Source: a virus
IMG/VR virus record: IMGVR_UViG_3300010373_000002
Span: 1-64,000 of that record
Length of the DNA: 64,000 nt
Strand: one strand, 5' to 3'
Part shown: piece by piece, positions 21,967 to 62,207 of the stretch
Layout of the letters: the number at the start of each line of letters is the position of its first letter
Numbering within the stretch: position 1 is the first letter of the stretch
The notes under the pieces: generated by a model
What the model was told of the DNA's origin: nothing
Database searches by the model: none
The model's input: the letters and a program-made list of their open reading frames with translations, nothing else
Made by a program: the position numbers and the translations under genes

Positions 21967-22309
21967 TTGCGAGCAGAAGAAGCGGCCCGCCTTTGGCTCT
22001 CGGTACACTTCCCGTCCCCGCTTGGACGTGTTCCGCACGAACAAGGCCACGATCGTCTTCAAGGCTCTCACGACGGGCAAGTGGCACAAGGGCCACCCCG
22101 TCTGCGCCCTCTACGTAGGCGGCACGCTGGGCGGCTTCACGCGATGCTGCCGTTGCGAAGGGGCGCACAACTCTCGCGAGCAAGCCATCGACTGCCCCGA
22201 GGCTCGGAAGCGTGCCAGGGAGATCGTCGGCAAAGACGTTGACCGGATGCTCGACGATTACCGTAAGACGGACGACAAGATTCTGCGAGAGGAGATGGCG
22301 GCAAAGTGA
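21959..22309 (+). CDS. Hypothetical Cys/His protein
   Basis: HPVC...CCRC...H...C. Confidence 0.6.
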   Translation: MINCEQKKRPAFGSRYTSRPRLDVFRTNKATIVFKALTTGKWHKGHPVCALYVGGTLGGFTRCCRCEGAHNSREQAIDCPEARKRAREIVGKDVDRMLDDYRKTDDKILREEMAAK

Positions 22310-22536
22310 CTAAATCATTTGGAAGAGACGGCGATTTTTTTTGGCGCAGCAGGGATACGGTTCGGCATGTCTCCGAGTTCGCCGGAGCAACGATCAAGCC
22401 GCAAGGTTCGTGCCCGAACCTTTGGGAATTGACCATTCATTTCAAAACAACCGAAGACCTCTGTTTTTGTTTTGGCGATATCGAAAGCGCTCGCCATGCA
22501 ATCGGATTTATGTTGATACTTTTACATATAGCTTAA
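22306..22536 (+). CDS. Hypothetical protein
   Basis: GTGA coupling. Confidence 0.55.
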   Translation: MTKSFGRDGDFFWRSRDTVRHVSEFAGATIKPQGSCPNLWELTIHFKTTEDLCFCFGDIESARHAIGFMLILLHIA

Positions 22537-22890
22537 CTTCTCATTCGCGGCTCGACATGCTAACGACCGGAATACCGCTGCGGAATCCAGCCGCCCTACT
22601 ACATGTTAAATCGGCTTTCGGATTCCCCACGACCGAATCGGACAGAGCCGCGTTTCGAGTAGCTTTGCCTGTCGAGCCGCGAATGAGAAGGTTTTTTGGT
22701 ACTTACGCATGGAATCTCCTTGTAAGTCGAACGATCAGATAAAATTGTACTCATATCTACTGAAGAACCACCGTGATCCTGCCTGCCGGTTACTCAAGTC
22801 GATCCGTCTCCTCTCTCAAGACCCCCAGTTTGTTGCCCAGGCGTTCGCCTTGAATCGGCTCTCAAGAGGCCGAGCGGCCCACCCACGTCC

Positions 22891-40789: not shown

Positions 40790-42196
40790 GTGGAAGCCGG
40801 CACGGATTTCTTATCTCAGATGCCGGCATGGATCGCCGCCAAGCTCCCGGAAGCGATCGCGGCGACCTCGCGGATTCCGTATTGCCCCGTCAAGCCGACT
40901 CCCACGCAGCGAGCGTTTATCGCCCTAGACCGAATCGGCGTCAGGGAAGCTCTCTACGGCGGAGCGGCGGGCGGCGGCAAGTCGTTCTGTCTCTGCATGA
41001 TGGCCTTGAAGTATGTCGATATCCCCGAATACCGCGCTCTTTTAATGAGAAGGACATTGGCCGACGCCGACAAAGCGGGCGGGTTGATGGAAGTGCTCTG
41101 GGAGTGGTTGCGGGGAACGAAAGCGAAGTATGACGGCGAAGGCAATCGCTGGCGGTTTCCATCGGGAGCGGAGATTCACTTCGGCTACATCGACGGGCCG
41201 AACGATCACTTTAACTACGCCGGGTCCGCATACCACTTTATCGGTTGGGACGAACTCACTCAATTTAGACAAAATCAATATGAATACGTCTCGTTCGCTC
41301 GCCAGCGGAGAAGGAAAGAGTCGGTCATCCCGCTGATCGTGCGAGCGACCTCGAATCCAGGCGGCACGGGTCATCAATGGGTCTTCGATCGGTTTGTAAA
41401 CCCCGACAATACTTCGAAGCGCGTCTTCCTTCCGGCGAAGCTGGACGACAACCCTCACTTGGATCGCGAGTCATACCGCGAATCACTCGCGGAACTCTCA
41501 GAGGTAGAGCGGCAACAACTACTCCACGGCAACTGGTATGTCAAGCAGCAAGGCTTGGTCTATCCCAACTTCGAAGAGTTCGTAGCGCCGATACCGTCAA
41601 GAGTCAAGGGCAGGAGAGTAGGCGGGATCGACTGGGGCTGGCACAACCCGTTCGGAGCGTTGGTGGGCACGCTGGATCATGACGACGTTCTTTGGATCAA
41701 CTATGAACGTCACGGAAGCCACATCACTCTCTCCGATCACGCCAAGGAATTGCCCAAGCCTTGCGAGTATTGGTGCGATCCGGCCGACCCTTCCGCCGCT
41801 TCCGAGTTGAGACTGTCGGGCCATGTGGTCATCCCTTGCACGCACAAGGGCAAAAACGCGATGGAGTCGGGGATCGGCACGGTCACCGCTCGAATGCGAA
41901 CCGGACGCCTCAAGTTCTCGCCGAAGTTGAAGGAACTCCGCAAGGAAGCCGGGTCTTACCGCCGCGATCCGCATACCGGAGTCCCTATCGACAAAGACAA
42001 CCACTTGGTTGCGGCTCTCAGATATCTAGTCGTCGGCTTAGACAGAGGCCATGTTGTCAACCAGAGAGAGACGGCGACGGCTCAAGTGATCAAAGAACGA
42101 GAGGAAGCCGAGGTCCGCGAGAAGTTGCTCAACGAACAGTTGATCGAGTGGCGGCGAATCGACAACCCGGCATGGTGGGAGACGACCGAAGCATGA
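40790..42196 (+). CDS. terL: Terminase large subunit
   Basis: YGGAAGGGKS Walker A, IGWDE Walker B, ATSNPGG, GIDWG nuclease, D...H...ALRY. Confidence 0.95.
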   Translation: MEAGTDFLSQMPAWIAAKLPEAIAATSRIPYCPVKPTPTQRAFIALDRIGVREALYGGAAGGGKSFCLCMMALKYVDIPEYRALLMRRTLADADKAGGLMEVLWEWLRGTKAKYDGEGNRWRFPSGAEIHFGYIDGPNDHFNYAGSAYHFIGWDELTQFRQNQYEYVSFARQRRRKESVIPLIVRATSNPGGTGHQWVFDRFVNPDNTSKRVFLPAKLDDNPHLDRESYRESLAELSEVERQQLLHGNWYVKQQGLVYPNFEEFVAPIPSRVKGRRVGGIDWGWHNPFGALVGTLDHDDVLWINYERHGSHITLSDHAKELPKPCEYWCDPADPSAASELRLSGHVVIPCTHKGKNAMESGIGTVTARMRTGRLKFSPKLKELRKEAGSYRRDPHTGVPIDKDNHLVAALRYLVVGLDRGHVVNQRETATAQVIKEREEAEVREKLLNEQLIEWRRIDNPAWWETTEA

Positions 42197-43370: not shown

Positions 43371-44981
43371 ATGCGATCGAAATGGTATCTGTATTACATC
43401 TCCGGTCCCATGACCGGCCTTCCCGAGTACAACTACCCCGCATTCAACCACGCCGCAAAAGTCGCCAGAGAGATGCTTGCCGACGCCGAGTTGGCGAACT
43501 CCTACGAGTTGGTATTCAACCCTGCCGAATCGTTCGGCGGCGACACGACGAAGGCCCGCGAAACCTATTTCGTCGAAGACATGCTCGCCCTGGCTCGGTC
43601 GGAACGCATCATCTTGCTGCCCGGTTGGGAGAAGTCGGCCGGAGCGAGATTGGAAGTGGCGGCGGCGAAGGAGATGGGACTCGGCTTCCACAAGTTCATT
43701 CTCAAGGAAGACGGCGAGTGGGACATCGGCGAGATGCGAGAAGCGCCGGATATCGAAGTGATCTGCAAGGAAGACACCCTGGCGATTCCAAGGACGGCAT
43801 ATTCCGCTTACTGTCCCCGAAACTACACGACTTGGTTGATCGGCGGCGATTGGGATAAAGCTCTAACCAAACCTCTGCCTCCGACCGACACGCTTCCTCA
43901 TGAGAAGGCCGAATACTTCGTCGATTATCGCGAGAAAGAAGATGATCCGCCGAAACCGGCTACTCCCGGAACTCACGACATCGGCCACGGCATCATCGCG
44001 AAACAAGTCGGCGGGATCGGCGGGACGATCGAGTTCAACGGCGTCCGCCTTCCGTTCACGAACTGGGAAGCGACGAAAGAGAGGATCGACGACGGCGACT
44101 CCGAACCGCCGCCGACCTCGAACTCCTTCTCCGACAAAATTAAAACGACTGTCGAGTTCACGGAATCCAGCAAAGATTGGATTAAAGAATTTCTGCTCGA
44201 AGAAGCCAAAAAGCAAGCGTCGTGGGGTGAACCGTTCCCGACCTCTCCGCCTGACGATGACACTGTTTATGATGAGGTTGGCGCTACTTTATGCGACAAG
44301 ATAGCGAAAGACTTCACCAAATACAGTGACGAGATCATTCTCGGAAAACTGGAAGGCGCAATCCGAGAGAATCCTTCTTTCCATCCCTCGGAAAAGAATC
44401 TTTCTTCTCTTTTCGGTTGCGGCGAACCATTACCGACGAAGCCGCCTAGAGATATTTCGAGCAAGAGAGAAGATGGGGTTTCTCTCGCGAGGGATCAAAT
44501 GAGAGACGTATGGAGAACTGTTGGTATCAGTGATTTATACGGCTATCCTTGCGTTGTTCAGTCGGACTTCGAACACTTCCCTATTCCAAAAGAATTCACT
44601 CCTCCGCCGAATCCTCCCGAGTCTCCTCCTTCGGACGGCATCAAACGCTTTGAGACGGGCGCAGTCAGATCGACCGACGCGGAAGGATTTCGCTACGACC
44701 TCATCTCGCCGATCGCTCTCAGGGAACTCGCCAGAACCTACGCGGAAGGTTCGCTCAAGTACGGCGACTTCAACTGGGAAAAGGGTATGCCGGTTCACGA
44801 TCTCTTGAACCACGCCATCCCGCACACCTATGAAGCCTTGGCGGGCGAAGACGTGCTCTTGAATCTCACTCACGCCGCTTGGGGATTGATGGCCGCGATC
44901 CACTCTTACATCCTCTGGCCGCATCTCAACGCCGGTCATCTTCGCGGTCCCGGTTGCACGCCGCCGACTCCGACTGAATAA
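43371..44981 (+). CDS. DUF4406 (deoxyribosyltransferase-like) fused to DUF5664 dATP/dGTP diphosphohydrolase-like domain
   Basis: YISGPMTG...NYPAF...NPAE...LPGWEKS.GA.LE; FETGAVR...RYDLI....L...A....G..KYG..NWEKG...H. Confidence 0.85.
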   Translation: MRSKWYLYYISGPMTGLPEYNYPAFNHAAKVAREMLADAELANSYELVFNPAESFGGDTTKARETYFVEDMLALARSERIILLPGWEKSAGARLEVAAAKEMGLGFHKFILKEDGEWDIGEMREAPDIEVICKEDTLAIPRTAYSAYCPRNYTTWLIGGDWDKALTKPLPPTDTLPHEKAEYFVDYREKEDDPPKPATPGTHDIGHGIIAKQVGGIGGTIEFNGVRLPFTNWEATKERIDDGDSEPPPTSNSFSDKIKTTVEFTESSKDWIKEFLLEEAKKQASWGEPFPTSPPDDDTVYDEVGATLCDKIAKDFTKYSDEIILGKLEGAIRENPSFHPSEKNLSSLFGCGEPLPTKPPRDISSKREDGVSLARDQMRDVWRTVGISDLYGYPCVVQSDFEHFPIPKEFTPPPNPPESPPSDGIKRFETGAVRSTDAEGFRYDLISPIALRELARTYAEGSLKYGDFNWEKGMPVHDLLNHAIPHTYEALAGEDVLLNLTHAAWGLMAAIHSYILWPHLNAGHLRGPGCTPPTPTE

Positions 44982-44990
44982 GGTCACACC

Positions 44991-47072
44991 ATGTATATTC
45001 GCCGTGGCGGAAGCCTACCGAAACCTCGTTGGGCGACCGGAACCACGGCTCGGAAGGGGCCGGGCGGTTATGGCGGCTCCTTCGGTTTCGGTTTCGGCGG
45101 TTCCACTTCCGCAGACGCTTTCGGCAAGAAGCCGGCTCCGACTCCGGCTCGCTTGGTCGATTGTTATAAACAGATCATCTATTCCTGCATCACCCTCAAT
45201 CAAGGCGCGGTCTCCTCGAACCCCCTCCGTCTCTACGCCTATCTCGACAAGAGCGACAAGAAGAAGGCGTGGGACGGCAGACCGATCGAACGCAAGCATC
45301 GGCTCCGCACCAACGAAGCCTTGAAGTCGATGGGGTCGCGATATATCAGCGACGAGGTTGAAGAGGTCACTTCCCACGTCGCCTTGGACGTCATCTCGCG
45401 GCCGAACAAATACTTCGACGGCAACAGCCTACTCCAATATATCGTCGTGTCGATGGATGTCGTCGGCGCGTTCTACGCGGAACCGTTGGGATCGCGACTC
45501 GGCAATCCGGTCAAGGAACTCTGGCCTTTGCCGCCGCATTACGTGTTTCCGGTTCCCGAGGTCGCCGATTTCGCCGAAATAGATTACTACCTCTTTGGTT
45601 CGCTCCGCTTCGAATTCGAAGAGTTGATCCGCATCCAATGGAACGACCTTCGCAATCCCTACCTCAACAACTACTCGCCGACGCGAGCCGCCTTTCAGTA
45701 TGCCGGACTAGAAGACGAGTGGGTTTCGACCCAACGCCAAACCTTCGAGAACGGCCCCGGTCCCTCCGCAGTCTTCTCGCCTAAAGACCCCGAGTTCACC
45801 TTCTCGCCCGAGACTCGGGTTCGCCTGGAAACCGCCCTTAACATCAAACACACCGCCGGAGGGCGGGGCAGAGCCTTAGTGACCGACGGTGCGTTGGATA
45901 TGCACCCGATCACCTACCCGCCCAACGAGGTCGCCGAAACCGGAGTCGCCGAGTACGACCTGGAGAGAATCTGTAACTGTTTCGGCGTGCATCCCGCTCA
46001 GATGTCGCGCGACACGAATATGGCGAACATGCAGGCGGCGAACGAGCATCACGCCAAAAGAGCCGTGCTTCCTCGCTGTATCGCCATCGCCAACGGTCTC
46101 ACTCGCGAGGTCGCTCAGAGATACGACAAGCGTTTATTCTTCGCCTTCGATCCCGTCGTCACGCCCGACCTCAAACTTCAAGCCGAGATTCACGACAAGT
46201 ACATATCCAACGGCGTCTACACGATCAACCGCGTGCGAGCGGACTTGGGCGAGCAACCGAGCGATTACGGCGAACTGCCTTGGTTCAGCAACAAACTGAT
46301 CCAGCCGGACGCGATGGCCGAGCAGATGGATCACGAGCAAGAGATGGATCGCGCCCAACTGCGGGAGTCGCGAGCGGCCAGATTGGCTCAACAAGCGGCG
46401 GCGACGGCGGCGGCGACGGCGGCGGCGAACAAACCGAAGAAGCCCGCAGGAAAGTCGTTCCCCGATCACTTGGTCGAAACGGTCGGCAGGTTGGACGAAC
46501 GGTTGCGAGTCATCGCCAATAAACTTCTCGCTTCCGAAGGGACCGACAATGGCTTCGGTCTTAGCGATGCTCTTACTCTCGCCGCTTATCTACGCAACCT
46601 TGACCGTCGCGTTGACGATTCCTCGCTCGATACGGTCCCTGTTCAAATCCCCGAGGCAATCACCTTGAATTGCGGCGCAATCAACGAGCCTCCCGAAGAA
46701 CCTTTGCCGGCTCCGGTCGTCGCTCCCGACGAGACCCCTTCCGAGAGCGTCGCGATCGAGCAAGCCGACGAGGAATTCGACTGGACGCACGACGGCTTCT
46801 TGGCTCGCCGCGTCGCCGAGGAAGCGGACATTTCCAAAGCGGTCGAAGTCGAAACCGAGGCTTTCGATATAGAGAACCCCGTTCACGTCTTCGGCTATTC
46901 GACCGACCCGGAGACGCCTGCGGCCGAAGAATCCAATGAATCCGAAACAATCCAATCGTTAATCCAGACCGCCGCCGAAGAAACGCCTCCCTCCGAGCCT
47001 GAGAAGGCGGTTGCTCCCAAGAAACGCAAACGTCGCAAGAAAGCCAAAGAGGAGGCCGAAATTGCCCCTTGA
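44991..47072 (+). CDS. Portal protein (HK97-type) with long acidic C-terminal extension
   Basis: RPN, ELWPL.P, SP, F.NG..P, IC..FGV.P, G..TIN.VR; position after terL. Confidence 0.92.
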   Translation: MYIRRGGSLPKPRWATGTTARKGPGGYGGSFGFGFGGSTSADAFGKKPAPTPARLVDCYKQIIYSCITLNQGAVSSNPLRLYAYLDKSDKKKAWDGRPIERKHRLRTNEALKSMGSRYISDEVEEVTSHVALDVISRPNKYFDGNSLLQYIVVSMDVVGAFYAEPLGSRLGNPVKELWPLPPHYVFPVPEVADFAEIDYYLFGSLRFEFEELIRIQWNDLRNPYLNNYSPTRAAFQYAGLEDEWVSTQRQTFENGPGPSAVFSPKDPEFTFSPETRVRLETALNIKHTAGGRGRALVTDGALDMHPITYPPNEVAETGVAEYDLERICNCFGVHPAQMSRDTNMANMQAANEHHAKRAVLPRCIAIANGLTREVAQRYDKRLFFAFDPVVTPDLKLQAEIHDKYISNGVYTINRVRADLGEQPSDYGELPWFSNKLIQPDAMAEQMDHEQEMDRAQLRESRAARLAQQAAATAAATAAANKPKKPAGKSFPDHLVETVGRLDERLRVIANKLLASEGTDNGFGLSDALTLAAYLRNLDRRVDDSSLDTVPVQIPEAITLNCGAINEPPEEPLPAPVVAPDETPSESVAIEQADEEFDWTHDGFLARRVAEEADISKAVEVETEAFDIENPVHVFGYSTDPETPAAEESNESETIQSLIQTAAEETPPSEPEKAVAPKKRKRRKKAKEEAEIAP

Positions 47073-48579
47073 TATCACTTGCTCGAAATCGTCCGTCGCC
47101 AAGGTCGATGTCTCCGTCGAAGCCGTCCAAGAGAACGAGAAGCGTTGGGCCGTATTCACGATCACGACCGACGACGTTGACCGTACCGGCGACGTGATTA
47201 TCGCCACCGGCGGCGACTACGCCGATTATTTGAAGAACCCTGTCGTTCTAGCCGTTCACGATATGTACTCGTGGCCGGTCGGGACCGCCGAAACGATCGA
47301 GGTTCAGCCGGATAAGCGGTCGGTGAAGTCTAAAGTCGTATTCCCGGACGGCGACCCCGAGATCGACCGGCTCTACAACCTGATCAAACAAAATGTCGTC
47401 AGAGGTTGCTCGGTCCAAATTCGCGTCCACTCGCAAGGGCCTCCCACCAAGGAAGAGTTGAAGGCTCGTCCCGATTGGGCGGGGGCTTCCAACATTATCC
47501 GCCAGTGGTCGCTGATCGAATGGTCGATCTGTCCGATCGGCATGAACCAGAACGCCTTGCTCGAAGCCGTCAAAAAAGGTCTGACGATCGAAGGCAAAGT
47601 GGCCGAATGGATCGAACCGCCGACGTGCGAGGTTCCCTTCAAGGAAACGAAGATTTCCGAGAAGCATTGGGACGAGGACGGGGCGGTCGCTCGACTCAAG
47701 CGTTGGGCGTCCAAAGACGGTTCCGGCGATCTCGATCAGATGGATTGGGATAAGTACCGCGAAGGTTTCGCGTGGTGCGATTACGAGAATCGAGAATCGT
47801 TCAAATCCTACAGGTTTCCACACCATGATGTCGTTCACGGTGAACTTGTAGTCGTAAGAGAATACCTTGATAACATTTTAACATACGGAATATTCGATTC
47901 ATTCAAGGTTTCGGAATACGAAAAAGTCGGAAATCATCTCGCGAAACACTATGGACAATGGGGTGAAAAAGCTCCCTGGGATCATGAACAACCAAAGGAA
48001 GACGATATGAGCCTGTTTGATGCCAAGGGGCCTGTTCCCCACGAAAAACAAAATCACATGGACGGCAAGTTCGACCATAGGGAGGCTTTGAATCGGGTCC
48101 GAAAAATGTGTTCGATCGACGGCACGGCGAAACAAGAGGACATGAACTTCTCTCTATACGCCAAGGCTTTCGCTCACGTTAATCCCGAAAGAGTGGACAA
48201 ATTCGACGGCTACTCTTTGCTTCACCACGACGTTGATAAAAAAGGCGTTATGTGTATGCACAAGATGGGGTTGCAGGATGCCGACATGAAGCTCGTCAAG
48301 GGAGATCACAATATCCCCGAGGAGCACATGGAAGGCGTCAAGGACCACATCCGCAAGCATTATCAAGAAATGGAATCGAAGCCCGTCTTCGACGATCACG
48401 GCCACAAAGCCTTGGATCAACCGGCCGAATTGGACGCGAATAAAGCCAAATTGGATGAAATCGCCGCCCGCCTCAAAGCGACGTCGAGAATCAAGAAAGC
48501 GGCCGAGAAGCCGATCGAAGTCCCGATCGAAGACACCGTGAAAACCGTGCTCGATCGCCTTCGTGGTTACACTTCCTAA
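47062..48579 (+). CDS. HK97-family prohead protease with two extra C-terminal repeat domains
   Basis: GGAGG and TTG 47062; DR.GD, NPVVL..H, SV, L.E.S...I.MN; two WD..A..R...F...Y...HHDV units. Confidence 0.88.
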   Translation: MPLDITCSKSSVAKVDVSVEAVQENEKRWAVFTITTDDVDRTGDVIIATGGDYADYLKNPVVLAVHDMYSWPVGTAETIEVQPDKRSVKSKVVFPDGDPEIDRLYNLIKQNVVRGCSVQIRVHSQGPPTKEELKARPDWAGASNIIRQWSLIEWSICPIGMNQNALLEAVKKGLTIEGKVAEWIEPPTCEVPFKETKISEKHWDEDGAVARLKRWASKDGSGDLDQMDWDKYREGFAWCDYENRESFKSYRFPHHDVVHGELVVVREYLDNILTYGIFDSFKVSEYEKVGNHLAKHYGQWGEKAPWDHEQPKEDDMSLFDAKGPVPHEKQNHMDGKFDHREALNRVRKMCSIDGTAKQEDMNFSLYAKAFAHVNPERVDKFDGYSLLHHDVDKKGVMCMHKMGLQDADMKLVKGDHNIPEEHMEGVKDHIRKHYQEMESKPVFDDHGHKALDQPAELDANKAKLDEIAARLKATSRIKKAAEKPIEVPIEDTVKTVLDRLRGYTS

Positions 48580-48670: not shown

Positions 48671-50083
48671 ATGCGTCAAATCGAAATGCTCAAGTCCTAC
48701 AACGGACTCGAAAAGGGCAGCAAATACGAGGTCAACGACGACGAAGCGGATTTGCTGGTCAAAGCCGAAATCGCCAAGTTGGTCGTGGAAGAGAAGGCCG
48801 CTCCGGTCGCCGGCATGACTCAAGAGGACTTGATCAAAACGATCACGGGCGTCTTGACTCAACTCGACGCGGTTTCCGAGCGTAAAAGCAAGGTCGCCAA
48901 CCCGGCCGAGGCCAAAGAGCCGCGTTCCTTGGGCGAGTGGTTCAAAGAGTTGGCGTTCGCGAACTCTCAGTCGATGGATATTCCCGCCGACCGCAAAAAG
49001 AGCGCCGTCAATATTTTGGTGAAGAAGTACGAGACGGAGTTCAACCGCTCGTTCGACAGCGACTTCAGCGAAGGTCTCAACCGAGACGCCGCCAAAGTGG
49101 CGAAGTCGATGGGTTACGCCGGCGACACCGTTCAGAAGGCGTCGGCCTTGGGCGAAACGTCGAGCGGCTTGGGCGGAGCCTTGGTTCCGTTCGAATTCAT
49201 GCCGCAACTCATGACCTTGATCGAGAATCAAGCCGACCTGATGCCCAAGTGTCGCCAAGTGCCCATGAACGGGACTTCGCTCACCTTCCCCGCCCTCGAT
49301 TACTCGCTCGGCGGCAGCGGCGCGAACCCCTTTCTGGCCGGCATGAAGGCGTCGTGGGGAACCGATGGGGCCACGTTCAACCAACAGAACCCCAACTTCC
49401 GCCAGATCGAACTCAAGCCGAACATCTTGAGCGGTTACACGGTCGCCTCGAAGAATTTGGTCGAAGATTCGCCGGAGACGGTGGGCGCGATCTTGAGCGA
49501 GTTGATCTCTCAGACCGCCGCGTTCTACATCGACTACGCGATCCTCTTCGGCTCGGGCGCGAACCAGCCGCTCGGCGTCTTCAACGCTCCGGCGACGATC
49601 AGCGTCAACCGGGCGGGGACGGCCAACGGCAACTACAACACCGACTTGACCGCGATGAACGCCAAGATGCTCCGCTCCAAGGGCAAGTCTTCGCCGTTCT
49701 GGATCACGTCTCCCTCGGTCGAACAACTCATCTTGGAGATGACCGACTCGACCGGCCGCTTGATCTTCCTGCCCAACTTCCCGAACCCGACCGGCGGCCA
49801 GGTTCAGTCGAACTACGGCGATCGGCTCTACAAGTACCCGTACATCGTCTCGCAACTCGCCGCTTCGGCCGCGACCGCAGGCGACTTGTTCCTCTTGGAC
49901 TTGGACAAATACTTCCTCGGTATGCGCAAGCAGCTTGAGGTTCAAGTGTCCGATCAGGTCAACTTCCTGAGCTACCAACTCGTGTGGCGGTTCATCCTCC
50001 GTTGCGACGGCAAGCCGTGGCTCAACACCAGCTTAACCTTGCAGAACGGCGACGTCGTTTCCCCGTTCGTCTACCGCAATTGA
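48671..50083 (+). CDS. Major capsid protein (HK97 fold)
   Basis: GGALVP, S..L..DS, D.AI..G.G..QP.G, R...R.DG.P. Confidence 0.95.
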   Translation: MRQIEMLKSYNGLEKGSKYEVNDDEADLLVKAEIAKLVVEEKAAPVAGMTQEDLIKTITGVLTQLDAVSERKSKVANPAEAKEPRSLGEWFKELAFANSQSMDIPADRKKSAVNILVKKYETEFNRSFDSDFSEGLNRDAAKVAKSMGYAGDTVQKASALGETSSGLGGALVPFEFMPQLMTLIENQADLMPKCRQVPMNGTSLTFPALDYSLGGSGANPFLAGMKASWGTDGATFNQQNPNFRQIELKPNILSGYTVASKNLVEDSPETVGAILSELISQTAAFYIDYAILFGSGANQPLGVFNAPATISVNRAGTANGNYNTDLTAMNAKMLRSKGKSSPFWITSPSVEQLILEMTDSTGRLIFLPNFPNPTGGQVQSNYGDRLYKYPYIVSQLAASAATAGDLFLLDLDKYFLGMRKQLEVQVSDQVNFLSYQLVWRFILRCDGKPWLNTSLTLQNGDVVSPFVYRN

Positions 50084-51752: not shown

Positions 51753-51917
51753 TCAAGTCTCGACCAAATAAGCCGTCAAGAAAAACAGCGAGACGATCGC
51801 CGCCGCCGAGCCGACAAGCAGCGGAGTCGCCCGCTCGAATACCGCGCCCGCCGCTCCCAATAAAAGCAATCCGGCGAAGCAGAAAACCGGAATCAAATCG
51901 AATGCTTTTGATCTCAT
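51753..51917 (-). CDS. Antisense 2-TM small protein (54 aa, not in ORF track)
   Basis: MRSKAFDLIPVFCFAGLLLLGAAGAVFERATPLLVGSAAAIVSLFFLTAYLVET; AAAGGA RBS; fills the intergenic gap. Confidence 0.7.
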   Translation of the reverse strand: MRSKAFDLIPVFCFAGLLLLGAAGAVFERATPLLVGSAAAIVSLFFLTAYLVET

Positions 51918-51996: not shown

Positions 51997-53688
51997 ATGG
52001 CCTTTAATGTCAAAGCCGCCGTCGAAGTCAACTCGTCGGGGGCCGATACCAACGGCGGCGGTTTCGACATCGGGGCCACTTTCGCGACCGACTTGGCCGC
52101 GACCGTCGCCAATACGTCCGCTCCGGTCGTGACCGCCGCCTCTTACACCGGCGGGTTCGTCGCCGGAGACGTGGGAGCCTTTCTTTATATCGCCTCGGGA
52201 ACCAATTGGATTCCGGGATTTTATCAGATCGCCTCCGTCGCGGGCGGAGCGGCAACCCTTTCGGCCGCTTGCGCCACCGTGGCATCGCCGACCGCCGGAA
52301 CTTGGGGTCTCGATTACTCGCGATCCACGTCGCCGCGCATCTCCTACGTCGATATGGCGATCGACCCGACCACTAACACCCAATTCACTTCCTCCACTAA
52401 CGCCGTCCTGCCGAATATCGTCGGCAACTATATCAAGGTCGCCTCGGGAACCGGATTCACGGTCCAAGTCGTCGAAGTCGTCTCCGTTTCCGGCGGAAAA
52501 GCGACATGCGACAAATCGCTGGGAACCCTCTCATCGACCGGAGGACACGGCGCTCTCGGCGGGGCCTTGGCGACGATCAACGCCGGGTTTGCTCTCATCA
52601 TCGGCTCGAACCACCTTTGGATCAAGAGCGGCAACTATACGACGGCGACCACGATCTCCACGTCCGTCTCCGGCAACGATACGCTCACGACCGGGCCGAC
52701 GATGATCTCCGGCTACAAAACGGTGCGCGGCGATATCGGTTATGGGCCGCTCGGCCTGAACGCTTCGAGCAGGCCCGTCGTGACGGCCACCGCCAGTTCG
52801 TTAAACGTGATCCAGACCAGCGGTCAATTCACGATCATCGAAAATCTTGTCGTCGATTCGGTCGGCGTCACGTTCTCGGCGAACACTTGCATTACCGCCA
52901 CAGGCGCTTACACGAAAGTAAGAAACTGCCTGTTGAAAAACGGATCGAACGCAGGCGTTGCGCTCGGAGGCCAATTCCAGGCGCTTGAATACAGCGAAAT
53001 CCTCGGCATGGTCGGCTCGAATCCCGCGATCAACGTCACCCAAGTCAGCACCATTGTTTACGGCTGTTCGGTCCACGACAACGCGGGCGACGGCTTCCAC
53101 TCGACGAACACCGGCGACATCATTCTCAACTCCCTGTTCGCCAACAACGCGGGCGTGGGCATCAACCTGGGGACGTTCGGCGTCGGCCACTTCATCATCG
53201 GCAACACGATCGTCGGCAGCGGCTCGCACGGCATCGGCAACCCCTCGCTCGTGTTCGGCCAGTTGGTGATCCGCGACAACATCATCGCCGACAACGGCGG
53301 CTGGGGCATCTTGGCCGTATCCTCGGGAAGCGTTCCCGACGATCCCATGTGGGACGGCAACCTCTACTACAACAACACGTCGGGCGCGATCGGCAACCTT
53401 GTCTCCGGCGCTCTCAACGCGGTCCCTTACACTCATGTCTACGACGTCAATCCGGCCTCGGCCGATCCGGTCACGTCGCACACCTCGGGCACGGCCAATT
53501 TCCCCACCGATAACTTCGGCCCGGTCACGACAGCGGGACCCAAGGCGGCGACATGGCTCTCCGCGTTCCCCGGCAACACGGCCACGGCCAACTATCGCGA
53601 CATGGGAGCCGTCCAGCATCAAGACGCGGGAAGCGGCGGTTCGCCGGGCAGACCGTTCTTCGTGCGGGGCAGCGTCATGCCGACCTAA
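51997..53688 (+). CDS. Right-handed beta-helix virion protein
   Basis: Repeated N...DN.G.G / N.I..NGG.GI turns; D.GAVQ end. Confidence 0.8.
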   Translation: MAFNVKAAVEVNSSGADTNGGGFDIGATFATDLAATVANTSAPVVTAASYTGGFVAGDVGAFLYIASGTNWIPGFYQIASVAGGAATLSAACATVASPTAGTWGLDYSRSTSPRISYVDMAIDPTTNTQFTSSTNAVLPNIVGNYIKVASGTGFTVQVVEVVSVSGGKATCDKSLGTLSSTGGHGALGGALATINAGFALIIGSNHLWIKSGNYTTATTISTSVSGNDTLTTGPTMISGYKTVRGDIGYGPLGLNASSRPVVTATASSLNVIQTSGQFTIIENLVVDSVGVTFSANTCITATGAYTKVRNCLLKNGSNAGVALGGQFQALEYSEILGMVGSNPAINVTQVSTIVYGCSVHDNAGDGFHSTNTGDIILNSLFANNAGVGINLGTFGVGHFIIGNTIVGSGSHGIGNPSLVFGQLVIRDNIIADNGGWGILAVSSGSVPDDPMWDGNLYYNNTSGAIGNLVSGALNAVPYTHVYDVNPASADPVTSHTSGTANFPTDNFGPVTTAGPKAATWLSAFPGNTATANYRDMGAVQHQDAGSGGSPGRPFFVRGSVMPT

Positions 53689-53698: not shown

Positions 53699-53791
53699 GT
53701 GCTCGCCGATTCCATGTGGGTTCTCGGTTCCTGTTACGTCCTCGTTTTGACGCTCGTTCTATTCACGTTCGCGGCGAGAGAGGGAGACTAA
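53699..53791 (+). CDS. Single-TM peptide (30 aa)
   Basis: AAGGAG RBS, GTG start; WVLGSCYVLVLTLVLFTF. Confidence 0.6.
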   Translation: MLADSMWVLGSCYVLVLTLVLFTFAAREGD

Positions 53792-53792
53792 T

Positions 53793-54683
53793 ATGTTTGT
53801 TCCCGGATGGAATCCCGACTTTCGCGATCAAGCCTTGGAGACGATGAAGACGGAAGGCGTCAAACTCTACCGCTCCGGTTTTCGAGCGACGCCCATCCCC
53901 AAGGCGATGTCTTTGTCATCGAAGATGATAAGATATGCAAACCAATTATCCGCAGGAACGTGCTGGGTCCACGGTCCTATTCAGGCGGTTGAAACGACCG
54001 GCAATCGTTTCGGCTTGGACGTCTTCCCGATCTGTCGGCGATTAGTCGGCTGGATCGGCAAACAGTTGGAAGGCGACGACGGCAATCCATCGGACGGCGG
54101 CAGCGGTTATGACGCCTTTATGGCGATGACTCGTAGGTTCGGCGGCGTCGCTCACGAATCGCTCTGTCCGTACACCGACAACGAAACGATCCTCGGCAAA
54201 AAGCCGCCCAAGAAAGCGTTCGAGGACGCCAAGGATCATTGGCTGGACACGATCGTTCGCGTCGAGAACTTGGACGACGCGAAACAGTGGATCGCACGCG
54301 GTCACGCGGTCGCGATCGGCTCGTGGTGGCCGACCGACTGGCAGGAACCGGACGCGATCAAGCGGTATGTCGGCGACGGCGAGTACGGCCACGAAAGATG
54401 CTTGGTAGGCTATGCCGAGGCGGGCGTGTTCGACCGGCACGAATACTTCGAAGAGATCAACTCTTGGGGCCTCGTTTACGATCCGTTGCCTACCGATCTC
54501 GCCGCCAAGGTTCCCGGCTACAAGTCGTGGACGCCCGATAAATCGGCCGGATTTTGGGTCCAAAGGGAATGCGAGGAAGAGATCACCGAAGGCAAGGGAA
54601 ACGCCGAATTCTCGACGATGACGAATCTGGACAATTTCAAACCTTTGGGCGAGGAAGTCTTCGAAATCATGGGAGCGTACTAA
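53793..54683 (+). CDS. Papain-like (C1) cysteine peptidase 1
   Basis: NQ..AGTCW; GHERCLVGY; INSWG. Confidence 0.85.
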   Translation: MFVPGWNPDFRDQALETMKTEGVKLYRSGFRATPIPKAMSLSSKMIRYANQLSAGTCWVHGPIQAVETTGNRFGLDVFPICRRLVGWIGKQLEGDDGNPSDGGSGYDAFMAMTRRFGGVAHESLCPYTDNETILGKKPPKKAFEDAKDHWLDTIVRVENLDDAKQWIARGHAVAIGSWWPTDWQEPDAIKRYVGDGEYGHERCLVGYAEAGVFDRHEYFEEINSWGLVYDPLPTDLAAKVPGYKSWTPDKSAGFWVQRECEEEITEGKGNAEFSTMTNLDNFKPLGEEVFEIMGAY

Positions 54684-55280
54684 GTGAAACTTCTCATTCT
54701 CTTGGCCGCGATCCTCGGACTAGGGGCCGGCCCTAAGACTCCGGTCTCGGGCACGATCCACGTCACTCAAATCTACTCCGACATGGCGACGACGCGGAAC
54801 TCGGTGGACCTGCAAATCGACAAGCCGACCCGCCGCTCGCTCGCCGCCGGCCAATGTATCTTTCGCGGTCTGACTATTTCCGACCCCTTGGTGACGAGTC
54901 TCGGCTATCAACCGACGATCCAGAACACTTTGATTCCCTTGGTCGTGTTTCAGGATAACTCGGGAGCTATCCTCGGGGCGATCCACGATCCCACTCCGGC
55001 TCAAGTCGTCGCTTATGTCGCCGGATTGCGGGCGATCACTCCGACGCCGACTCCCAACCCGACACCCACGCCGCCGCCGACTCCCGTTCCTCCTCCCGTG
55101 CCGCCGCCGATTCCGCCTCCGGTCCCGACGCCGACGCCGACGCCTCCGCCTAGTCCCTCGCCTTCTCCGTCGCCTTGCGTGATTTACGTGTACGTGACCG
55201 TGAACGTCAACATGGCCGCCGCTCAAGCTCCGACCTATTATCCTACTCCGACTCTTTATTATGTTCCGTGGTATAGATAA
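54684..55280 (+). CDS. Signal-peptide protein with Pro/Thr-rich linker
   Basis: MKLLILLAAILGLGAG; long PTPTP/PPVPPP tract. Confidence 0.75.
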   Translation: MKLLILLAAILGLGAGPKTPVSGTIHVTQIYSDMATTRNSVDLQIDKPTRRSLAAGQCIFRGLTISDPLVTSLGYQPTIQNTLIPLVVFQDNSGAILGAIHDPTPAQVVAYVAGLRAITPTPTPNPTPTPPPTPVPPPVPPPIPPPVPTPTPTPPPSPSPSPSPCVIYVYVTVNVNMAAAQAPTYYPTPTLYYVPWYR

Positions 55281-55293
55281 CATAGGAAGTATT

Positions 55294-56112
55294 ATGTTTT
55301 ACATATCATCGGATACATCTCAAGTAAAACCGACCCCGAGCATCTACGCCGGCGGCAATTGGCGGTCGCTCTCTCGGAAAGTCTCGAAACATCAGAAACC
55401 GTGCCGCCATTTCGTCGCCGACCCGGCAACCGTTCTTCCCGCGTCGATCGACTTGGACGTGCTTAACGCGCCCATCTTGGATCAAAGCCAATACGGCTCG
55501 TGCGGCGGTTGGTCCACTGCAGGGGCCTTGATGCTCGCCAGGAACCTTGCAGGCCAAGACGCCGAGGAATTGTCGGGTAGTTATATCTACTCGTATACCA
55601 ACGGCGGCGTCGATCAAGGCTCGGCGATTTCGGACGACGTGGACGCGGCGACGACATACGGAACCTGTAGCGATTCGCTTTGCACCGCCGACATGATCTA
55701 CCGCTATCAGATTCCCGCCGGAGCCGACACGCAAGCGAAACGGTTCCGCATCGGCGACTCTTTGGCGCTCACCGACTCCACGCTGTTCCAAGCGGCCCTG
55801 GCGGCGGGGCGACCGATCGTCTGCGGTATCGAGGCCGGGCCTGACTTCTCGAACCTGGATGCAGAAGGCGTGCCGCCGGTCTCTCAAGGTCAAGGAAACC
55901 ACGCGGTCTGCCTGGTCGGCTACTTGACGCTTCCCTCGGGCCGATTCGCCTTCAAGATGCGGAACAGTTGGGGAGCGGATTGGGGCGTGAACGGCTACTG
56001 CTACTGCTTGCCGCAACACTTCTCCTCGGCCGATCAATCCGACTCAAGAGCGATCGTCTCGGCCTTGGACGATCCCCAAGATTCCTCGATACCTCCAGTC
56101 GTGTCCGCCTGA
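55294..56112 (+). CDS. Papain-like (C1) cysteine peptidase 2
   Basis: DQSQYGSC; NHAVCLVGY; RNSWG.DWG.NGY; AGGA RBS. Confidence 0.92.
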   Translation: MFYISSDTSQVKPTPSIYAGGNWRSLSRKVSKHQKPCRHFVADPATVLPASIDLDVLNAPILDQSQYGSCGGWSTAGALMLARNLAGQDAEELSGSYIYSYTNGGVDQGSAISDDVDAATTYGTCSDSLCTADMIYRYQIPAGADTQAKRFRIGDSLALTDSTLFQAALAAGRPIVCGIEAGPDFSNLDAEGVPPVSQGQGNHAVCLVGYLTLPSGRFAFKMRNSWGADWGVNGYCYCLPQHFSSADQSDSRAIVSALDDPQDSSIPPVVSA

Positions 56113-56166: not shown

Positions 56167-58899
56167 ATGAGCAACGCGATCGGCAATATGTCCGCCGGAG
56201 GCGGCGGCGGTTCGTCCACCGCTTTAAGTTCGGGGCAGAACGTCTACGACGTATCGAAATACGGCGCGCTTCCCGACCCCGGCCACAGCAATTCGCTCAA
56301 AGGGGCAATCGACACGATCAGCGGTCTCGTCGGGTCCGGCGACCCGGTGACGATTTATATACCATCGGGCACTTATACGATTTTCGACTCGATTTGGCTG
56401 CCGTCCAATCTCTGTTCCGTCGTCGGCCAAGACATGCAAACGACGGTGATCAACGGGTTCGGCTTGCCCGCGTTCATCGTCGGTTTCCCCAAAGAGTACG
56501 GCAACCAACCGATCACGGCGGGTCACTGGCCGGCGATGCCCACCGCGCCGGGAGTCACGAACGGCATGGATTCGGCGTGGGCCAACGGCATTATCGGCAA
56601 TCGCAAGGGATTCGCGATGTACGACCCGGCGACGGGTTTAACGAATCCCGATTTGCGGTACTTTTATTTTCAGAACACGCCGATCACCCAAGGTCTCACG
56701 AACGACTATTGGACCGTTACGAATAAGTTCACTTTAGAACTTGCCGCCCTTCATCGCACCGCTTCGCCGACCGCGAGCGTGCCCGCGATCGGGCCGGGAC
56801 TGCCGCCGCTCGGCTACGGCGTCTGCTTGGCGAATTTCACCAGTCCGAGCATGACTCGGCCTTGGTCCGTCTTGGCTCAAGGAATTCAAGGGAACGTCGT
56901 CTCCAGCGCCGCCAACTCGGTCACGATCACGAAAACCTCGTCGGTCTTGGGGATCAACGGCGGCAATATTCCGGTCGGCTCCTTGATCCAAGTGACGACG
57001 GGAACCGGCGCGGGCCAGATCAACCAAATTACCTCGATCACTCCCTCCGGCGGCAATTTGATTTTTGCCGTCCAAAACTCATGGAACGTCAACCCCGGAG
57101 CAGGCGCGACCGTGGTGGTTCTTTGCGGCTTCTCTATCTCGGTCAATATCGCCACGACGCCGCTTTGCGATGGACAAATCCCCGGATACGACCCCTCGCA
57201 AGACGGCACTCAAAGCGGAATCGGCTTGATGTTCCCGACCGGCATGGGTGCTCAACTCTCGGCATTGACGTCGGCGAATTCGATCTGGCGGTTCAAGTTC
57301 CAACTCGATCTCACCGCGTCTTCCTTGGCGAATCTCGCTCAAGGCTGGGTCTCCATCAATGGGTCGGCGTCGGGAAGTTTCGCGCAAATGACGGCGGTCA
57401 GCGGTCCCGCGCTGCCTTTGCCCAATCCGCATTTCGTCGAAGCGTCGTTCGGCTTCGTCAGCGTCGGCGCGCCGATCTTGCAACCGCAACTCCAAATCTT
57501 CCCCGGCTATTCGATGGTCCCGTTCGTCTCTTGGAACGGCGGCGTCACCCCCACGTTTACCGCAGACCAAAAGGCCGCTCTGCCGGGTTGGGACGTCACC
57601 TTGCTCGGTATGTCGCTGGTCGCGGGAAACTCCGGCGGCAACGTCTACACGACCGCCGCGACTCTGGCGCTCAACACGAGCGGACCTCGGCCGACCGGAA
57701 CGATCGGCGACAACTTCTCTTACGGCCCCTCCGGCGTGGCGAACATGCTGGCTTGGCTCCCTTTCTCCGACCCCGGCCTTACCGACTCGTTCGGCGGGCG
57801 AATGGCGGCGATCACCCCGCTCGGCGGCTCGGGAACTCGGGGCATCGTCTTGCCGATGATCTATTTGGGCGACAACTCGACGCCGATCGGCAATCAGTGC
57901 AGCGTGTCCAATCTTACCGTCAGCGGCAGTTCCAACCCCTCGGTCGGCATGGCGTTCTGGGCCGGTCCTTGCTACGACATGCACTTCGATAACATCTATG
58001 TGAATTCGTTCCAGAACGGCATCTGCCAAGTCCCGTTCAACAACGGCTACATCTTGGACGTCAGCTTCCTCGGGACCAAGAGTTGCGCCGACGCGGGAAT
58101 GTTTCTCTTCAATACATACGGTCGGATCAAGAATTACCACACGACCTCGCAACGTACCGGACTCCGCTGCGTCTCGGCGACCTTGGAGGTCGGCACATGG
58201 ATCAACGGCAACGTGGTGGCGGGCCTCCATACGGCGAGAGGCCATACCGGCGAGTATAGTTCCTCTTGCTTATTCATGGAATCGTTCATCAACGACAACG
58301 AGGCGCAGTTCGGCACGCCGGCCGCGTCGATCGCCATCATCGACTACGACAACGGGCCGACCAATTCGGTCACGGCCTTGCGACTGCCGAACCTCAATCT
58401 TTCGAGTCCGAGCGGCATCGCCCCTTATATCAAGCTCCGCAATATCGTCCCCGCCGGTTGCAGTACGCTCCGCTTGACCGGCCCGGCCTGTTCGCCTAAA
58501 GGCGCTCCACTGGTCCAGATGGTCGGCGGCAACACGGGATGGGACGGCGTTATCGAAGACGTCAACTTCAACACCGTCTCGCCCGACTTCGACTACACGC
58601 CCATTCTCGATTGCACCTTCGGACCCCGCACCAGCCGCATCCGGCTCGAAATTTACTTGGACGGCCTACCGATCGCCGGACCTTGGGCGGCGGGAGCGAC
58701 CGTAATCAAGATTCGCGCGAGCGCCTTGCTCCCCGGTATGCCGACCTCTTTCGTCTGCGTCCAAGGGGGTCAATACGGCACGAACTCGCCGCCGGTCTGG
58801 GACGCTCGCGACCCTTACTCGCCCGATGGAACCAACAACGCCATTTGGATGACGACCACAAGAACCAATTATGGTTCATGCACCATTACAGGTTTATAA
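56167..58899 (+). CDS. Tailspike/depolymerase-like protein (pectate-lyase-3-like N-terminus, beta-helix)
   Basis: YDVSKYGA.PD...AID...IYIP.GTY; C-terminal CVQGG..G...P.W. Confidence 0.75.
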   Translation: MSNAIGNMSAGGGGGSSTALSSGQNVYDVSKYGALPDPGHSNSLKGAIDTISGLVGSGDPVTIYIPSGTYTIFDSIWLPSNLCSVVGQDMQTTVINGFGLPAFIVGFPKEYGNQPITAGHWPAMPTAPGVTNGMDSAWANGIIGNRKGFAMYDPATGLTNPDLRYFYFQNTPITQGLTNDYWTVTNKFTLELAALHRTASPTASVPAIGPGLPPLGYGVCLANFTSPSMTRPWSVLAQGIQGNVVSSAANSVTITKTSSVLGINGGNIPVGSLIQVTTGTGAGQINQITSITPSGGNLIFAVQNSWNVNPGAGATVVVLCGFSISVNIATTPLCDGQIPGYDPSQDGTQSGIGLMFPTGMGAQLSALTSANSIWRFKFQLDLTASSLANLAQGWVSINGSASGSFAQMTAVSGPALPLPNPHFVEASFGFVSVGAPILQPQLQIFPGYSMVPFVSWNGGVTPTFTADQKAALPGWDVTLLGMSLVAGNSGGNVYTTAATLALNTSGPRPTGTIGDNFSYGPSGVANMLAWLPFSDPGLTDSFGGRMAAITPLGGSGTRGIVLPMIYLGDNSTPIGNQCSVSNLTVSGSSNPSVGMAFWAGPCYDMHFDNIYVNSFQNGICQVPFNNGYILDVSFLGTKSCADAGMFLFNTYGRIKNYHTTSQRTGLRCVSATLEVGTWINGNVVAGLHTARGHTGEYSSSCLFMESFINDNEAQFGTPAASIAIIDYDNGPTNSVTALRLPNLNLSSPSGIAPYIKLRNIVPAGCSTLRLTGPACSPKGAPLVQMVGGNTGWDGVIEDVNFNTVSPDFDYTPILDCTFGPRTSRIRLEIYLDGLPIAGPWAAGATVIKIRASALLPGMPTSFVCVQGGQYGTNSPPVWDARDPYSPDGTNNAIWMTTTRTNYGSCTITGL

Positions 58900-58908: not shown

Positions 58909-59328
58909 ATGGTTTCCACGGGCTTTCTCACCGATTTGATCGCCAACGATTTGCAGGCGTCGATCTTCCACGGCGCATCTTTTCCGGCGTTCCCGACGAA
59001 CCTCTATCTCGCCCTCTCGCGGGTGAACCCGAACCGGCAAAACGCGATTCCCGCTCCGTTTACCGAACTAACCGGCAGCAATTATTCGCGAACCTTGATC
59101 GCTTGCACTTCGGGAAATTGGACCTTAAACGCGACCGGCCAAGCGTACAACACGCTCCAAATCACGCTTCCCGTGCCGACCGCTCCTTGGCTGACCGTTT
59201 TCGGCTGGGGCCTCTACGACGCTCCGACCGGCGGCACTCTTTGGTGGTGCGGAAATCTGCCCGGATTAGTGTTCACGACGACTTCGGCCCCGATCATCGC
59301 CGCAGGCGCTCTCATCCTCCAAATCTAA
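58909..59328 (+). CDS. Small phage tail-fibre-associated protein
   Basis: LYLAL...EL.G..Y.R...W...N...I..P..T..W.TV...GLYDA.TGG.L. Confidence 0.8.
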   Translation: MVSTGFLTDLIANDLQASIFHGASFPAFPTNLYLALSRVNPNRQNAIPAPFTELTGSNYSRTLIACTSGNWTLNATGQAYNTLQITLPVPTAPWLTVFGWGLYDAPTGGTLWWCGNLPGLVFTTTSAPIIAAGALILQI

Positions 59329-61226: not shown

Positions 61227-62207
61227 ATGCCGGTCGTCTTAAATCCGATCACGGAAAACGACAATTCGCTGATCACCTTGAGCCAGTTGACGACGGCGAT
61301 TCCCAACCTGTCGGCGGCCCAACTGGCGGATGCCCCTGCGGCCATCGTCGCCGCGTCGATCGCCATCAATCAGTGGACTAAAAATATCTTCGTTTTGACC
61401 GATTACGACGAGATTTATAGTCCGTCCGTGACCGACGGACGACTGATCCTCAAACACTTTCCCGTCAACACGGTCTACCGGGTCTCCTCGGGGAAGACGC
61501 AAGCCGCCGCCGTCTTCAACTTCGCGACCACGCTCAACCAGCGAGCCTACATGGCGTTCTCCTACACCGGCGACGTCGCCTCGGGTCTCACGTATACCGG
61601 CCTCAACCTCACGCGAGTCTCCTCGGCGGTTTCGACGACGGTCAACCTCTTATTTTCAACTTACTTGACCATTCAATCTTTGGTCGATGCGATCAATGCC
61701 CTTGGAAGCGGCTGGGACGCCACGGTAACAACCGGCATGGGTCAGTGGCCCACCACCGAGCTAACCGGCGGCGAAGCGTCTCAGGGATGTATGGGAGGCA
61801 CTGGGGCGTGTCTGGCCGTGTTCGCTCAAGACATCGCCTACACGTCGCTTGATCAGCCGACCGGCGTCATCAACATCGTCTATCCCCAGTTCACCAACTT
61901 CCTTTATCAGAACTCGGGATCGCTGATCGAGTATTTCGACGGCGAGTTGCCAGGCCAAGGCGTCATCCCTTCGTTGTCTCCCAGGCAGGTTCGAGTCGCC
62001 TACAACTCGGGATACGCGACGATTCCCGCCGACGTTCAAAGGGCGTGCATTTTAGCGGTGAACAACATCCTCAACTTCAGTCAACAAGATATCACGCTTC
62101 TGAAAGAGGATGTGCGAAATCATAAGATCGAGTTCAACACAAAAGGCATGATCCTCACGAAAACCGTTAAGCAAATCCTCTCGCCTTACAAAGACTGGAG
62201 GGTTTGA
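61227..62207 (+). CDS. Head-tail connector (gp6/gp15-like) with large insertion
   Basis: LITL...AAS..I...T...L...PV; V.Y.SGY..IPADV..A...L.PY..W. Confidence 0.8.
   Translation: MPVVLNPITENDNSLITLSQLTTAIPNLSAAQLADAPAAIVAASIAINQWTKNIFVLTDYDEIYSPSVTDGRLILKHFPVNTVYRVSSGKTQAAAVFNFATTLNQRAYMAFSYTGDVASGLTYTGLNLTRVSSAVSTTVNLLFSTYLTIQSLVDAINALGSGWDATVTTGMGQWPTTELTGGEASQGCMGGTGACLAVFAQDIAYTSLDQPTGVINIVYPQFTNFLYQNSGSLIEYFDGELPGQGVIPSLSPRQVRVAYNSGYATIPADVQRACILAVNNILNFSQQDITLLKEDVRNHKIEFNTKGMILTKTVKQILSPYKDWRV

Follow-up and report, generated by a model that had tools for sequence, protein, structure and literature searches.

A putative protease-based lysis module with two papain-type peptidases in a phage of a probable Isosphaeraceae host

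The virus record IMGVR_UViG_3300010373_000002 of IMG/VR comprises 113,401 bp with direct terminal repeats and is rated complete. Its first 64 kb, the whole stretch analysed here and hereafter called the window, contains four tightly packed genes at positions 53699-56112, which encode two papain-like cysteine peptidases (pep1 and pep2), a membrane peptide and a protein rich in proline and threonine. An earlier sequence-only reading of the window had described this cassette and proposed that it serves lysis in a non-canonical way or supplies virion-borne proteases. All four open reading frames (ORFs) were confirmed on the plus strand, as listed below; positions refer to the window unless the genome or another locus is named.

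53699-53791, plus strand: single-helix membrane peptide, 30 amino acids (aa), GTG start, AAGGAG 5 nt upstream
53793-54683, plus strand: pep1, C1A-fold cysteine peptidase, 296 aa, ATG start, no signal peptide
54684-55280, plus strand: Pro/Thr-rich exported or membrane-anchored protein, 198 aa, GTG start, GGGAG upstream
55294-56112, plus strand: pep2, C1 peptidase, 272 aa in the public gene call, ATG at 55294, AGGAAG 6 nt upstream

The 30-aa peptide consists of a single hydrophobic helix with an acidic terminus, its last residues being AREGD, and its stop codon lies 1 nt ahead of the ATG of pep1; neither a homologue nor a PHROG match was found for it. The GTG of the Pro/Thr-rich protein directly abuts the TAA of pep1. 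This third protein has an N-terminal hydrophobic signal or anchor, a domain of about 100 aa, a Pro/Thr/Ser run of about 45 aa and a Tyr-rich C-terminus. It contains a single cysteine and no CxxC, gave no match in Pfam and PHROG scans, and a search for relatives found none; its single-sequence AlphaFold2 model (predicted local distance difference test score, pLDDT, 40) is uninformative on the fold, and the Atlas offered nothing beyond weak leads. The reading frame of pep2 is also open from an ATG at 55261, but that codon has no ribosome-binding site. Given the AGGAAG before 55294 and the public 272-aa call, pep2 probably occupies 55294-56112 and does not overlap the third gene. A frameshift fusion of the Pro/Thr stalk with pep2 was considered and rejected: the frame is open from 55204, the required +1 shift is unsupported, and a separate ribosome-binding site precedes 55294. 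Neither a sigma-70-type promoter-like site nor a convincing terminator was found within or beside the cassette.

Against the Pfam Peptidase_C1 profile (PF00112, curated cut-off 20.7 bits), pep2 scored 48 bits (47.7 bits in a six-frame search), and it also matched phrog_16701, 'peptidase'. The score of pep1 was 19.9 bits, just short of the cut-off, and none of the 17 clusters that form its small family has a precomputed PF00112 match. An AlphaFold2 model of pep1, made with 17 relatives in the alignment, gave a two-lobed papain fold with a pLDDT of 90.6. It matched xylellain (3OIS) with a Foldseek E of 1e-12, a VIA Z of 26.9 and a root-mean-square deviation of 2.2 A over 239 residues; cathepsins and plant C1A enzymes, dozens of them, followed at Z of 21-24. 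The predicted structure of pep1 is clearly that of a papain (C1A) fold despite the sub-threshold Pfam score.

The catalytic Gln, Cys, His and Asn, previously noted as intact in both enzymes, are conserved in their families. In pep1, Q51 and C57 do not vary among 17 family members and H200 and N223 hardly vary, and Q75, C81, H214 and N235-S-W of pep2 are invariant in 30 relatives; these residues of the two enzymes align together in HHalign. The peptidases share 26% identity over 156 aa by BLASTP (E 9e-4), and their family profiles were aligned by HHalign at 97.5% (E 6.5e-12), so that by sequence comparison they are highly diverged, as first described, yet homologous. Judged from sequence and model, pep2 is a member of Peptidase C1, and its fold and catalytic residues mark pep1 as a divergent relative.

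No N-terminal signal peptide was detected in pep1 or pep2, again as first described, and no match to the I29 propeptide was found in either. In structural alignments, the N-terminal ~25-35 residues of pep1 superpose on the end of zymogen propeptides, and mature enzymes start at model residue 25-35 whereas zymogens and xylellain start at residue 1. These different starting points indicate that pep1 carries a short built-in pro-like segment, which may inhibit the enzyme.

The genomic surroundings of the pep1 relatives carry much of the functional argument. One relative (P0007) is 67% identical to pep1, and Singulisphaera sp. PoT (Isosphaeraceae), with prophages at around 0.94 and 1.72 Mb, has two pep1-type copies in its chromosome. 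Among 301 genomes sampled across Planctomycetota, a pep1-type gene was found in a single one, that of Singulisphaera sp. PoT itself; within the Singulisphaera GTDB family, four of the 121 genomes gave strong matches and two more gave weak ones. A common gene order was observed in three prophages (L012, L013 and L027) and two viral contigs (L007 and L008), namely a bitopic membrane protein, the peptidase, a protein with an N-terminal transmembrane (TM) helix, several small TM proteins, terS, terL and portal. The upstream bitopic partner has 130-200 aa, often with a Pro/Thr-rich N-terminus, and is translationally coupled to the peptidase, and the small downstream proteins are holin-like, with one or two TM helices and charged tails. 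A remnant (L026) adjoining host efflux genes retains three genes only, encoding a membrane protein, the peptidase and a two-helix protein. By analogy with known phages, the pre-terminase position of these relatives is the classical site of a lysis cassette, and the 30-aa peptide of the window phage occupies the position of the bitopic partner (a positional analogy to L012, L013, L007, L026 and L027).

Sister prophages of the same family, located through portal and terminase, were found to carry other enzymes in the same slot. L047 retains the upstream partner, the downstream partner and a holin-like gene of 86-94 aa, and its enzyme is a divergent C1-like protein of 294 aa with a weak match to the pep2 profile (E 9.5e-7). 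L045, the third prophage of Singulisphaera sp. PoT, has the terminase closest to that of the window phage (38%); in place of the papain-type enzyme it encodes a zinc metalloprotease, and downstream come a gene of the same holin-like family and terS/terL. In L046 the slot is taken by a protein with a Tat signal, in which a Cys/His pair is possible but was not confirmed. The 6.7-kb viral contig L008 has two further genes of note around its pep1-type cassette.

L045:10794-11432, plus strand: matrixin-type zinc metalloprotease (HELGHILGLGH; MMP-13/MMP-3 catalytic domains, E 1.5e-4)
L008:211-714: CAP/PR-1-type domain protein, ahead of the pep1-type cassette
L008:3267-4043: secreted trypsin-like serine protease, after the holin-like genes

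No recognisable muramidase was found in any lysis slot of the prophages and contigs compared. Different protease families thus appear interchangeable in the Isosphaeraceae prophage slot, an observation that is new here.

The genome of the window phage was also surveyed for other lysis enzymes. About 130 ORFs spanning the whole 113-kb genome were scanned with Pfam at E<=1e-3, and six-frame searches of the genome were made with Phage_lysozyme, Amidase_2, SLT and NLPC_P60. No peptidoglycan hydrolase domain (lysozyme, transglycosylase, amidase, CHAP/NlpC, M15 or M23) was detected in the cassette, in the scanned ORFs or in the six-frame searches, at a threshold that may miss a very divergent muramidase and with ORFs below 80 aa outside the scan. 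A canonical endolysin elsewhere in the genome, which the sequence-only reading had named, together with a lack of envelope activity, as a finding that would speak against its proposal, was not detected by either type of search. We lean, by a modest degree, towards regarding the four-gene block as the lysis module of this phage, protease-based instead of muralytic. The earlier idea of a non-canonical lysis cassette is partly supported, in that no canonical endolysin domain was found in the genome, the pep1 relatives lie in a lysis slot and a pep2-like C1 domain occurs in a modular phage lysin; the spanin role that it assigned found no support and the holin role is tentative at most, as detailed below.

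The probable host offers a context for such a module. Portal relatives with 35-38% identity were found in nine of the 121 Singulisphaera-family genomes, and with 30-31% identity in two of 200 other planctomycete genomes. The distribution of portal and pep1 relatives points to a host that is probably an Isosphaeraceae planctomycete. The penicillin-binding protein (PBP) transpeptidase domain PF00905 was present in only three of the 121 genomes of the Singulisphaera family, compared with 197 of 201 in the phylum sample, and the YkuD L,D-transpeptidase domain PF03734 was likewise present in three of the 121. This transpeptidase gap, with ~97% of the family's genomes devoid of PBP and YkuD transpeptidases, is new here. 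A recent review reported that most mur genes, ftsI, ftsW and ldt have been lost in these orders, with ldt loss in Gemmatales and Isosphaerales, and treated the nature of the wall as open (PMC12673574, 2025). The SLT, NlpC/P60 and phage-lysozyme profiles drew no match in Singulisphaera sp. PoT or G377, the two pep1-bearing genomes to which they were applied, and the Amidase_2 genes of both are placed away from prophages. Portal-related elements in PBP-positive planctomycetes begin at terS on the island edge and therefore provide no lysis slot for comparison. A host without known cross-linking enzymes would give its phages a simple reason for using proteases, although this is a correlation. The suggestion that the proteases are aimed at envelope proteins gains support from the gap in the host family, which agrees with the review (PMC12673574), while the accompanying statement that planctomycetes have thin peptidoglycan proved too general.

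Were the host to have a murein sacculus, the peptidases could instead be classical endolysins, that is, endopeptidases acting on peptidoglycan stem peptides or cross-links in the manner of CHAP or NlpC/P60 enzymes. Mur-ligase domains, present in all three pep1-bearing genomes searched, would fit such a host, clan CA cysteine peptidases are common as lysin domains (PMC10318531), and in the annotated lysin of phage MMB025 a C1-like domain stands next to a glycosidase-like one and to PG_binding_1. This possibility nevertheless appears distinctly unlikely to us in view of the transpeptidase gap in the likely host family, the lack of any peptidoglycan-binding domain in the two peptidases and the matrixin-type protease that a sister prophage carries in the same slot. 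C1A enzymes are also, as far as we know, protein endopeptidases.

If the cassette is a protease-based lysis module, the following sequence of events may be envisaged. The four translationally coupled genes would be expressed late, within the structural operon, and the signal-less pep1 and pep2 would build up in the cytoplasm, with pep1 at least probably restrained by its own short N-terminal pro-like segment. Permeabilisation of the inner membrane by membrane proteins, for which the 30-aa peptide and/or a holin encoded elsewhere are candidates, would then give the peptidases access to the envelope, where they would cleave a load-bearing polymer. Since an Isosphaeraceae-type host has no known transpeptidases, this polymer is more likely to be protein than cross-linked murein. 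The Pro/Thr-rich protein could be a periplasmic or wall-side partner, acting as a tether, scaffold or outer-layer disruptor, and the presence of two very different peptidases may suggest two substrates or two envelope layers. For each of the cassette products we infer activity, substrate, export and timing alike.

Several points, besides the reach of the domain scan mentioned above, weigh against a lysis module. Of the traits of a holin, the 30-aa peptide has one helix, a charged end and coupling to pep1, yet it has no homologue, and to our knowledge 30 aa is far below the size of known holins, which makes it a holin candidate at most. The holin-like family of the related prophages has no homologue in the window phage. 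No holin was identified in the genome, in which the other small membrane ORFs lie far from the cassette. For the Pro/Thr-rich protein, which has no relatives, any role is guesswork. A pep1-type and a pep2-type gene were found together nowhere else, and the host itself is deduced from the distribution of relatives. Finally, the cassette is not beside the terminase; it sits between the fibre genes at 51997-53688 and 56167-58899, a location that fits virion proteins equally well. The late operon lies on the plus strand and starts at 40.8 kb, with the cassette inside its structural part; the genes concerned are as follows.

40790-42196, plus strand: large terminase
44991-47072, plus strand: portal
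47011-48579, plus strand: prohead protease
48671-50083, plus strand: major capsid protein
51997-53688, plus strand: fibre-like protein, 563 aa
56167-58899, plus strand: 910-aa protein with a weak pectate-lyase-type match
58909-59328, plus strand: Gp80-type fibre protein
61227-62207, plus strand: head-tail adaptor

The cassette is thus flanked by two beta-helix fibre-like genes together with the Gp80-type fibre gene; the tail-completion protein is encoded past the window end. This setting among fibre genes within the structural operon keeps alive the reading that at least one of the peptidases is a virion-associated entry enzyme, located on or near the fibres and digesting a protein-rich surface layer at infection, much as virion-associated peptidoglycan hydrolases of other phages act, with pep1 perhaps serving exit and pep2 entry. 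Entry, too, would call for a protease if the host has no cross-linked sacculus, and the conserved motifs of pep2 described below could be docking sites. Such a role is considered unlikely, though worth keeping in view, given that the pep1 relatives precede terS beside holin-like genes and away from tail genes, that neither peptidase is fused to a fibre or baseplate domain, and that a membrane peptide with an exported partner is typical of lysis cassettes rather than of virion modules. The location between fibre genes would also suit assembly proteases that merely mature or trim neighbouring fibre or head proteins. This we hold to be very improbable: a separate prohead protease is encoded at 47011-48579, the pep1 relatives lie away from fibre genes, the L026 remnant has membrane partners only, and the coupled membrane peptide and exported protein would be left unexplained.

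The candidates for a holin, all proposed from sequence features, include the 30-aa peptide and the following small membrane ORFs.

20525-20800 and 20822-21100, plus strand: candidate holin/antiholin pair, small membrane ORFs with ribosome-binding sites and no family match
Genome 83477-83749 and 83746-83922, plus strand: candidate holin/antiholin pair, small membrane ORFs with ribosome-binding sites and no family match
51753-51917, minus strand: two-helix 54-aa ORF with a ribosome-binding site

The members of the two pairs have two helices, or one helix with a highly charged tail. The minus-strand ORF occupies the 248-nt gap ahead of the first fibre gene, perhaps by chance. The region 20005-22742, with its small membrane ORFs, was examined as a hidden lysis cassette and rejected, having no lysis-type PHROG or Pfam match.

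Several identities were likewise rejected for the Pro/Thr-rich protein. The spanin-like role first suggested for it found no support: it has no relatives and no lipobox, there is no cysteine in or after its signal (MKLLILLAAILGLGAGPK), no coiled coil is predicted and a C-terminal TM helix is absent, so that proline richness is its sole likeness to a spanin. Nothing in its sequence points to a thioredoxin-fold partner either, since PF00085 gave no match up to E 10 and CxxC is absent, and no PF07639 match marks it as a mimic of YTV wall proteins.

The pep2 family is far larger than that of pep1, with 7114 cluster representatives at E<1e-3, of which 1238 remain at E<1e-10. Its members are mostly stand-alone proteins of 260-290 aa with two conserved motifs, G..R.L..LP at the N-terminus and a DDPxD..PP tail at the C-terminus. 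Two types of longer protein were distinguished. In one, inteins are inserted inside the Q..G/SC catalytic motif; in the other, the peptidase comes last, behind a signal peptide (or TM helix), a beta-rich domain, a proline-rich linker and a further domain of about 100 aa. The export signal of the latter implies that this type of peptidase works outside the cytoplasm. Its layout resembles the gene pair in the window, in which an exported Pro/Thr-rich protein stands beside pep2. The third gene was therefore examined as a split-off N-terminal module of these long proteins, and this was rejected, as a hidden Markov model of the module did not match it and only the architecture is alike. Matches to pep2 among viral contigs (L002-L005) are cathepsin-like genes of giant viruses, and planctomycete chromosomal matches to its profile are mostly secreted multidomain peptidases of the host in non-phage contexts.

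The breadth of the pep2 family, together with the distant secreted C1 peptidases on planctomycete chromosomes, would suit accessory genes, serving host takeover, anti-defence or superinfection exclusion by the cutting of surface proteins on the host. Little credence is given to this explanation, since it does not account for the late-operon position, the tight coupling, the lysis-slot context of the pep1 relatives or the failure to detect another lysis enzyme.

Inteins at the catalytic-Cys motif were observed in both peptidase families, which is new here. Intein_splicing matches were obtained in eight of 35 long pep2-family proteins, some with LAGLIDADG as well. In P0015, a member of the pep1 family, the intein lies directly ahead of the catalytic Cys (QAGT/C...HN/CW), and the pep2-type inteins lie between G and SC of Q..GSC (P0042, P0076, P0130, P0071, P0160, P0051 and P0053).

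Returning to lysis by proteases, a wider proposal may be offered tentatively, with rather more doubt than trust on our part. Phages of Isosphaeraceae, and perhaps those of other planctomycetes without murein cross-linking machinery, would lyse their hosts with proteases alone; the papain-type and metzincin-type enzymes of the slot would be interchangeable, and the two papain-type enzymes of the window phage would split the work between two envelope layers or between exit and entry.

In functional terms, and by analogy, the closest known kind of system is the holin-endolysin cassette. As in the holin-endolysin-spanin cassettes typified by lambda S-R-Rz/Rz1, which stands before the terminase, small membrane proteins share one late transcription unit with a degradative enzyme that has no signal peptide, and in the related prophages the module is directly ahead of terS/terL. 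The window cassette differs in that the enzyme is a C1A-fold protease (matrixin-type in a sister prophage) and not a glycosidase, amidase, transglycosylase or CHAP/M15/M23 enzyme, and in that it has two enzymes, no recognisable holin or spanin, and a position among fibre genes. Every well-studied lysis system of tailed phages that we know of uses a murein- or pseudomurein-cutting enzyme.

At the level of the enzyme, xylellain of Xylella fastidiosa (3OIS, MEROPS C1A) is the best structural match of pep1, covering model residues 1-281; it has the same Gln/Cys/His/Asn and a short N-terminal segment in place of a full I29 propeptide. Unlike xylellain, with which it shares ~20% identity, pep1 is phage-encoded and coupled to membrane proteins. 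Among clan CA peptidases, the pseudomurein endoisopeptidases PeiW and PeiP (C71) are used to open cell walls. In the same way, the CHAP (C51) and NlpC/P60 (C40) endolysins are clan CA cysteine peptidases by which phages open the cell wall through its peptide bonds (PMC10318531), a likeness to pep1 and pep2. The papain fold of all of these is minimal or permuted and lacks the C1A Gln...NSWG signature, in contrast to pep1 and pep2, and the enzymes act on murein or pseudomurein peptides, usually with wall-binding domains, none of which was seen in pep1 or pep2. The lysin of Alicyclobacillus phage MMB025 (PV686781, CDS0095) comes nearer, with an N-terminal domain of Peptidase_C1 type (27.9 bits) that is related to pep2 (tblastn E 5e-5) and a gene placed after fibre genes, comparable to the cassette. 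It differs from pep2 as a modular protein of 753 aa, with an Rv2525c glycosidase-like domain and PG_binding_1, from a phage of a Gram-positive host, and its annotation is automatic.

In a review of papain-like enzymes, endolysins appear solely in the section on NlpC/P60, CHAP and amidases (PMC10318531), and a search limited to one library of papers found no published C1A endolysin and no protease-based lysis in planctomycete phages. The twin-peptidase arrangement is new here. If true, a lysis module built on proteases of a general type, in phages of a family poor in PBP and L,D-transpeptidases, would solve the problem of lysis in another way, and the natural substrates would reveal the load-bearing envelope proteins of these bacteria. 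It would offer a handle on the old question of what holds the planctomycete envelope together and whether Isosphaerales have a functional sacculus. Planctomycetes are difficult both to break open and to modify genetically, and such enzymes could also become tools to lyse or protoplast them.

A few other features were recorded. A C1-like peptidase of 264 aa is encoded with an exported thioredoxin of 147 aa (CPAC) and a membrane protein of 115 aa in the planctomycete genome G208 (L042:8641-10189, minus strand); no phage genes are visible near this trio, and the Pro/Thr-rich protein has no similarity to the thioredoxin. A signal-peptide protein of the phage (P0171, genome 85523-86011, plus strand) was considered as a chagasin-like I42 inhibitor and rejected, with no PF09394 match at E 10 and no PDB sequence match; it has no relatives among the viral contigs searched.

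One further gene lies between an exonuclease-like gene and portal.

43371-44981, plus strand: fusion of a DUF4406 / nucleoside 2-deoxyribosyltransferase-like domain with a dATP/dGTP diphosphohydrolase N-terminal domain (PF18909)

This fusion hints at nucleotide-pool or DNA-modification chemistry. Three TnpB/Cas12f-like genes (OrfB_IS605 with a Cas12f1-like TNB domain) are present, two as ORFs in the window at 1-22.7 kb and one in the genome at 89.7-113.4 kb, and an RF-1-domain protein is also encoded. Other matches in the genome were to class II ribonucleotide reductase, Intein_splicing, beta clamp, thymidylate synthase and dihydrofolate reductase (DHFR).

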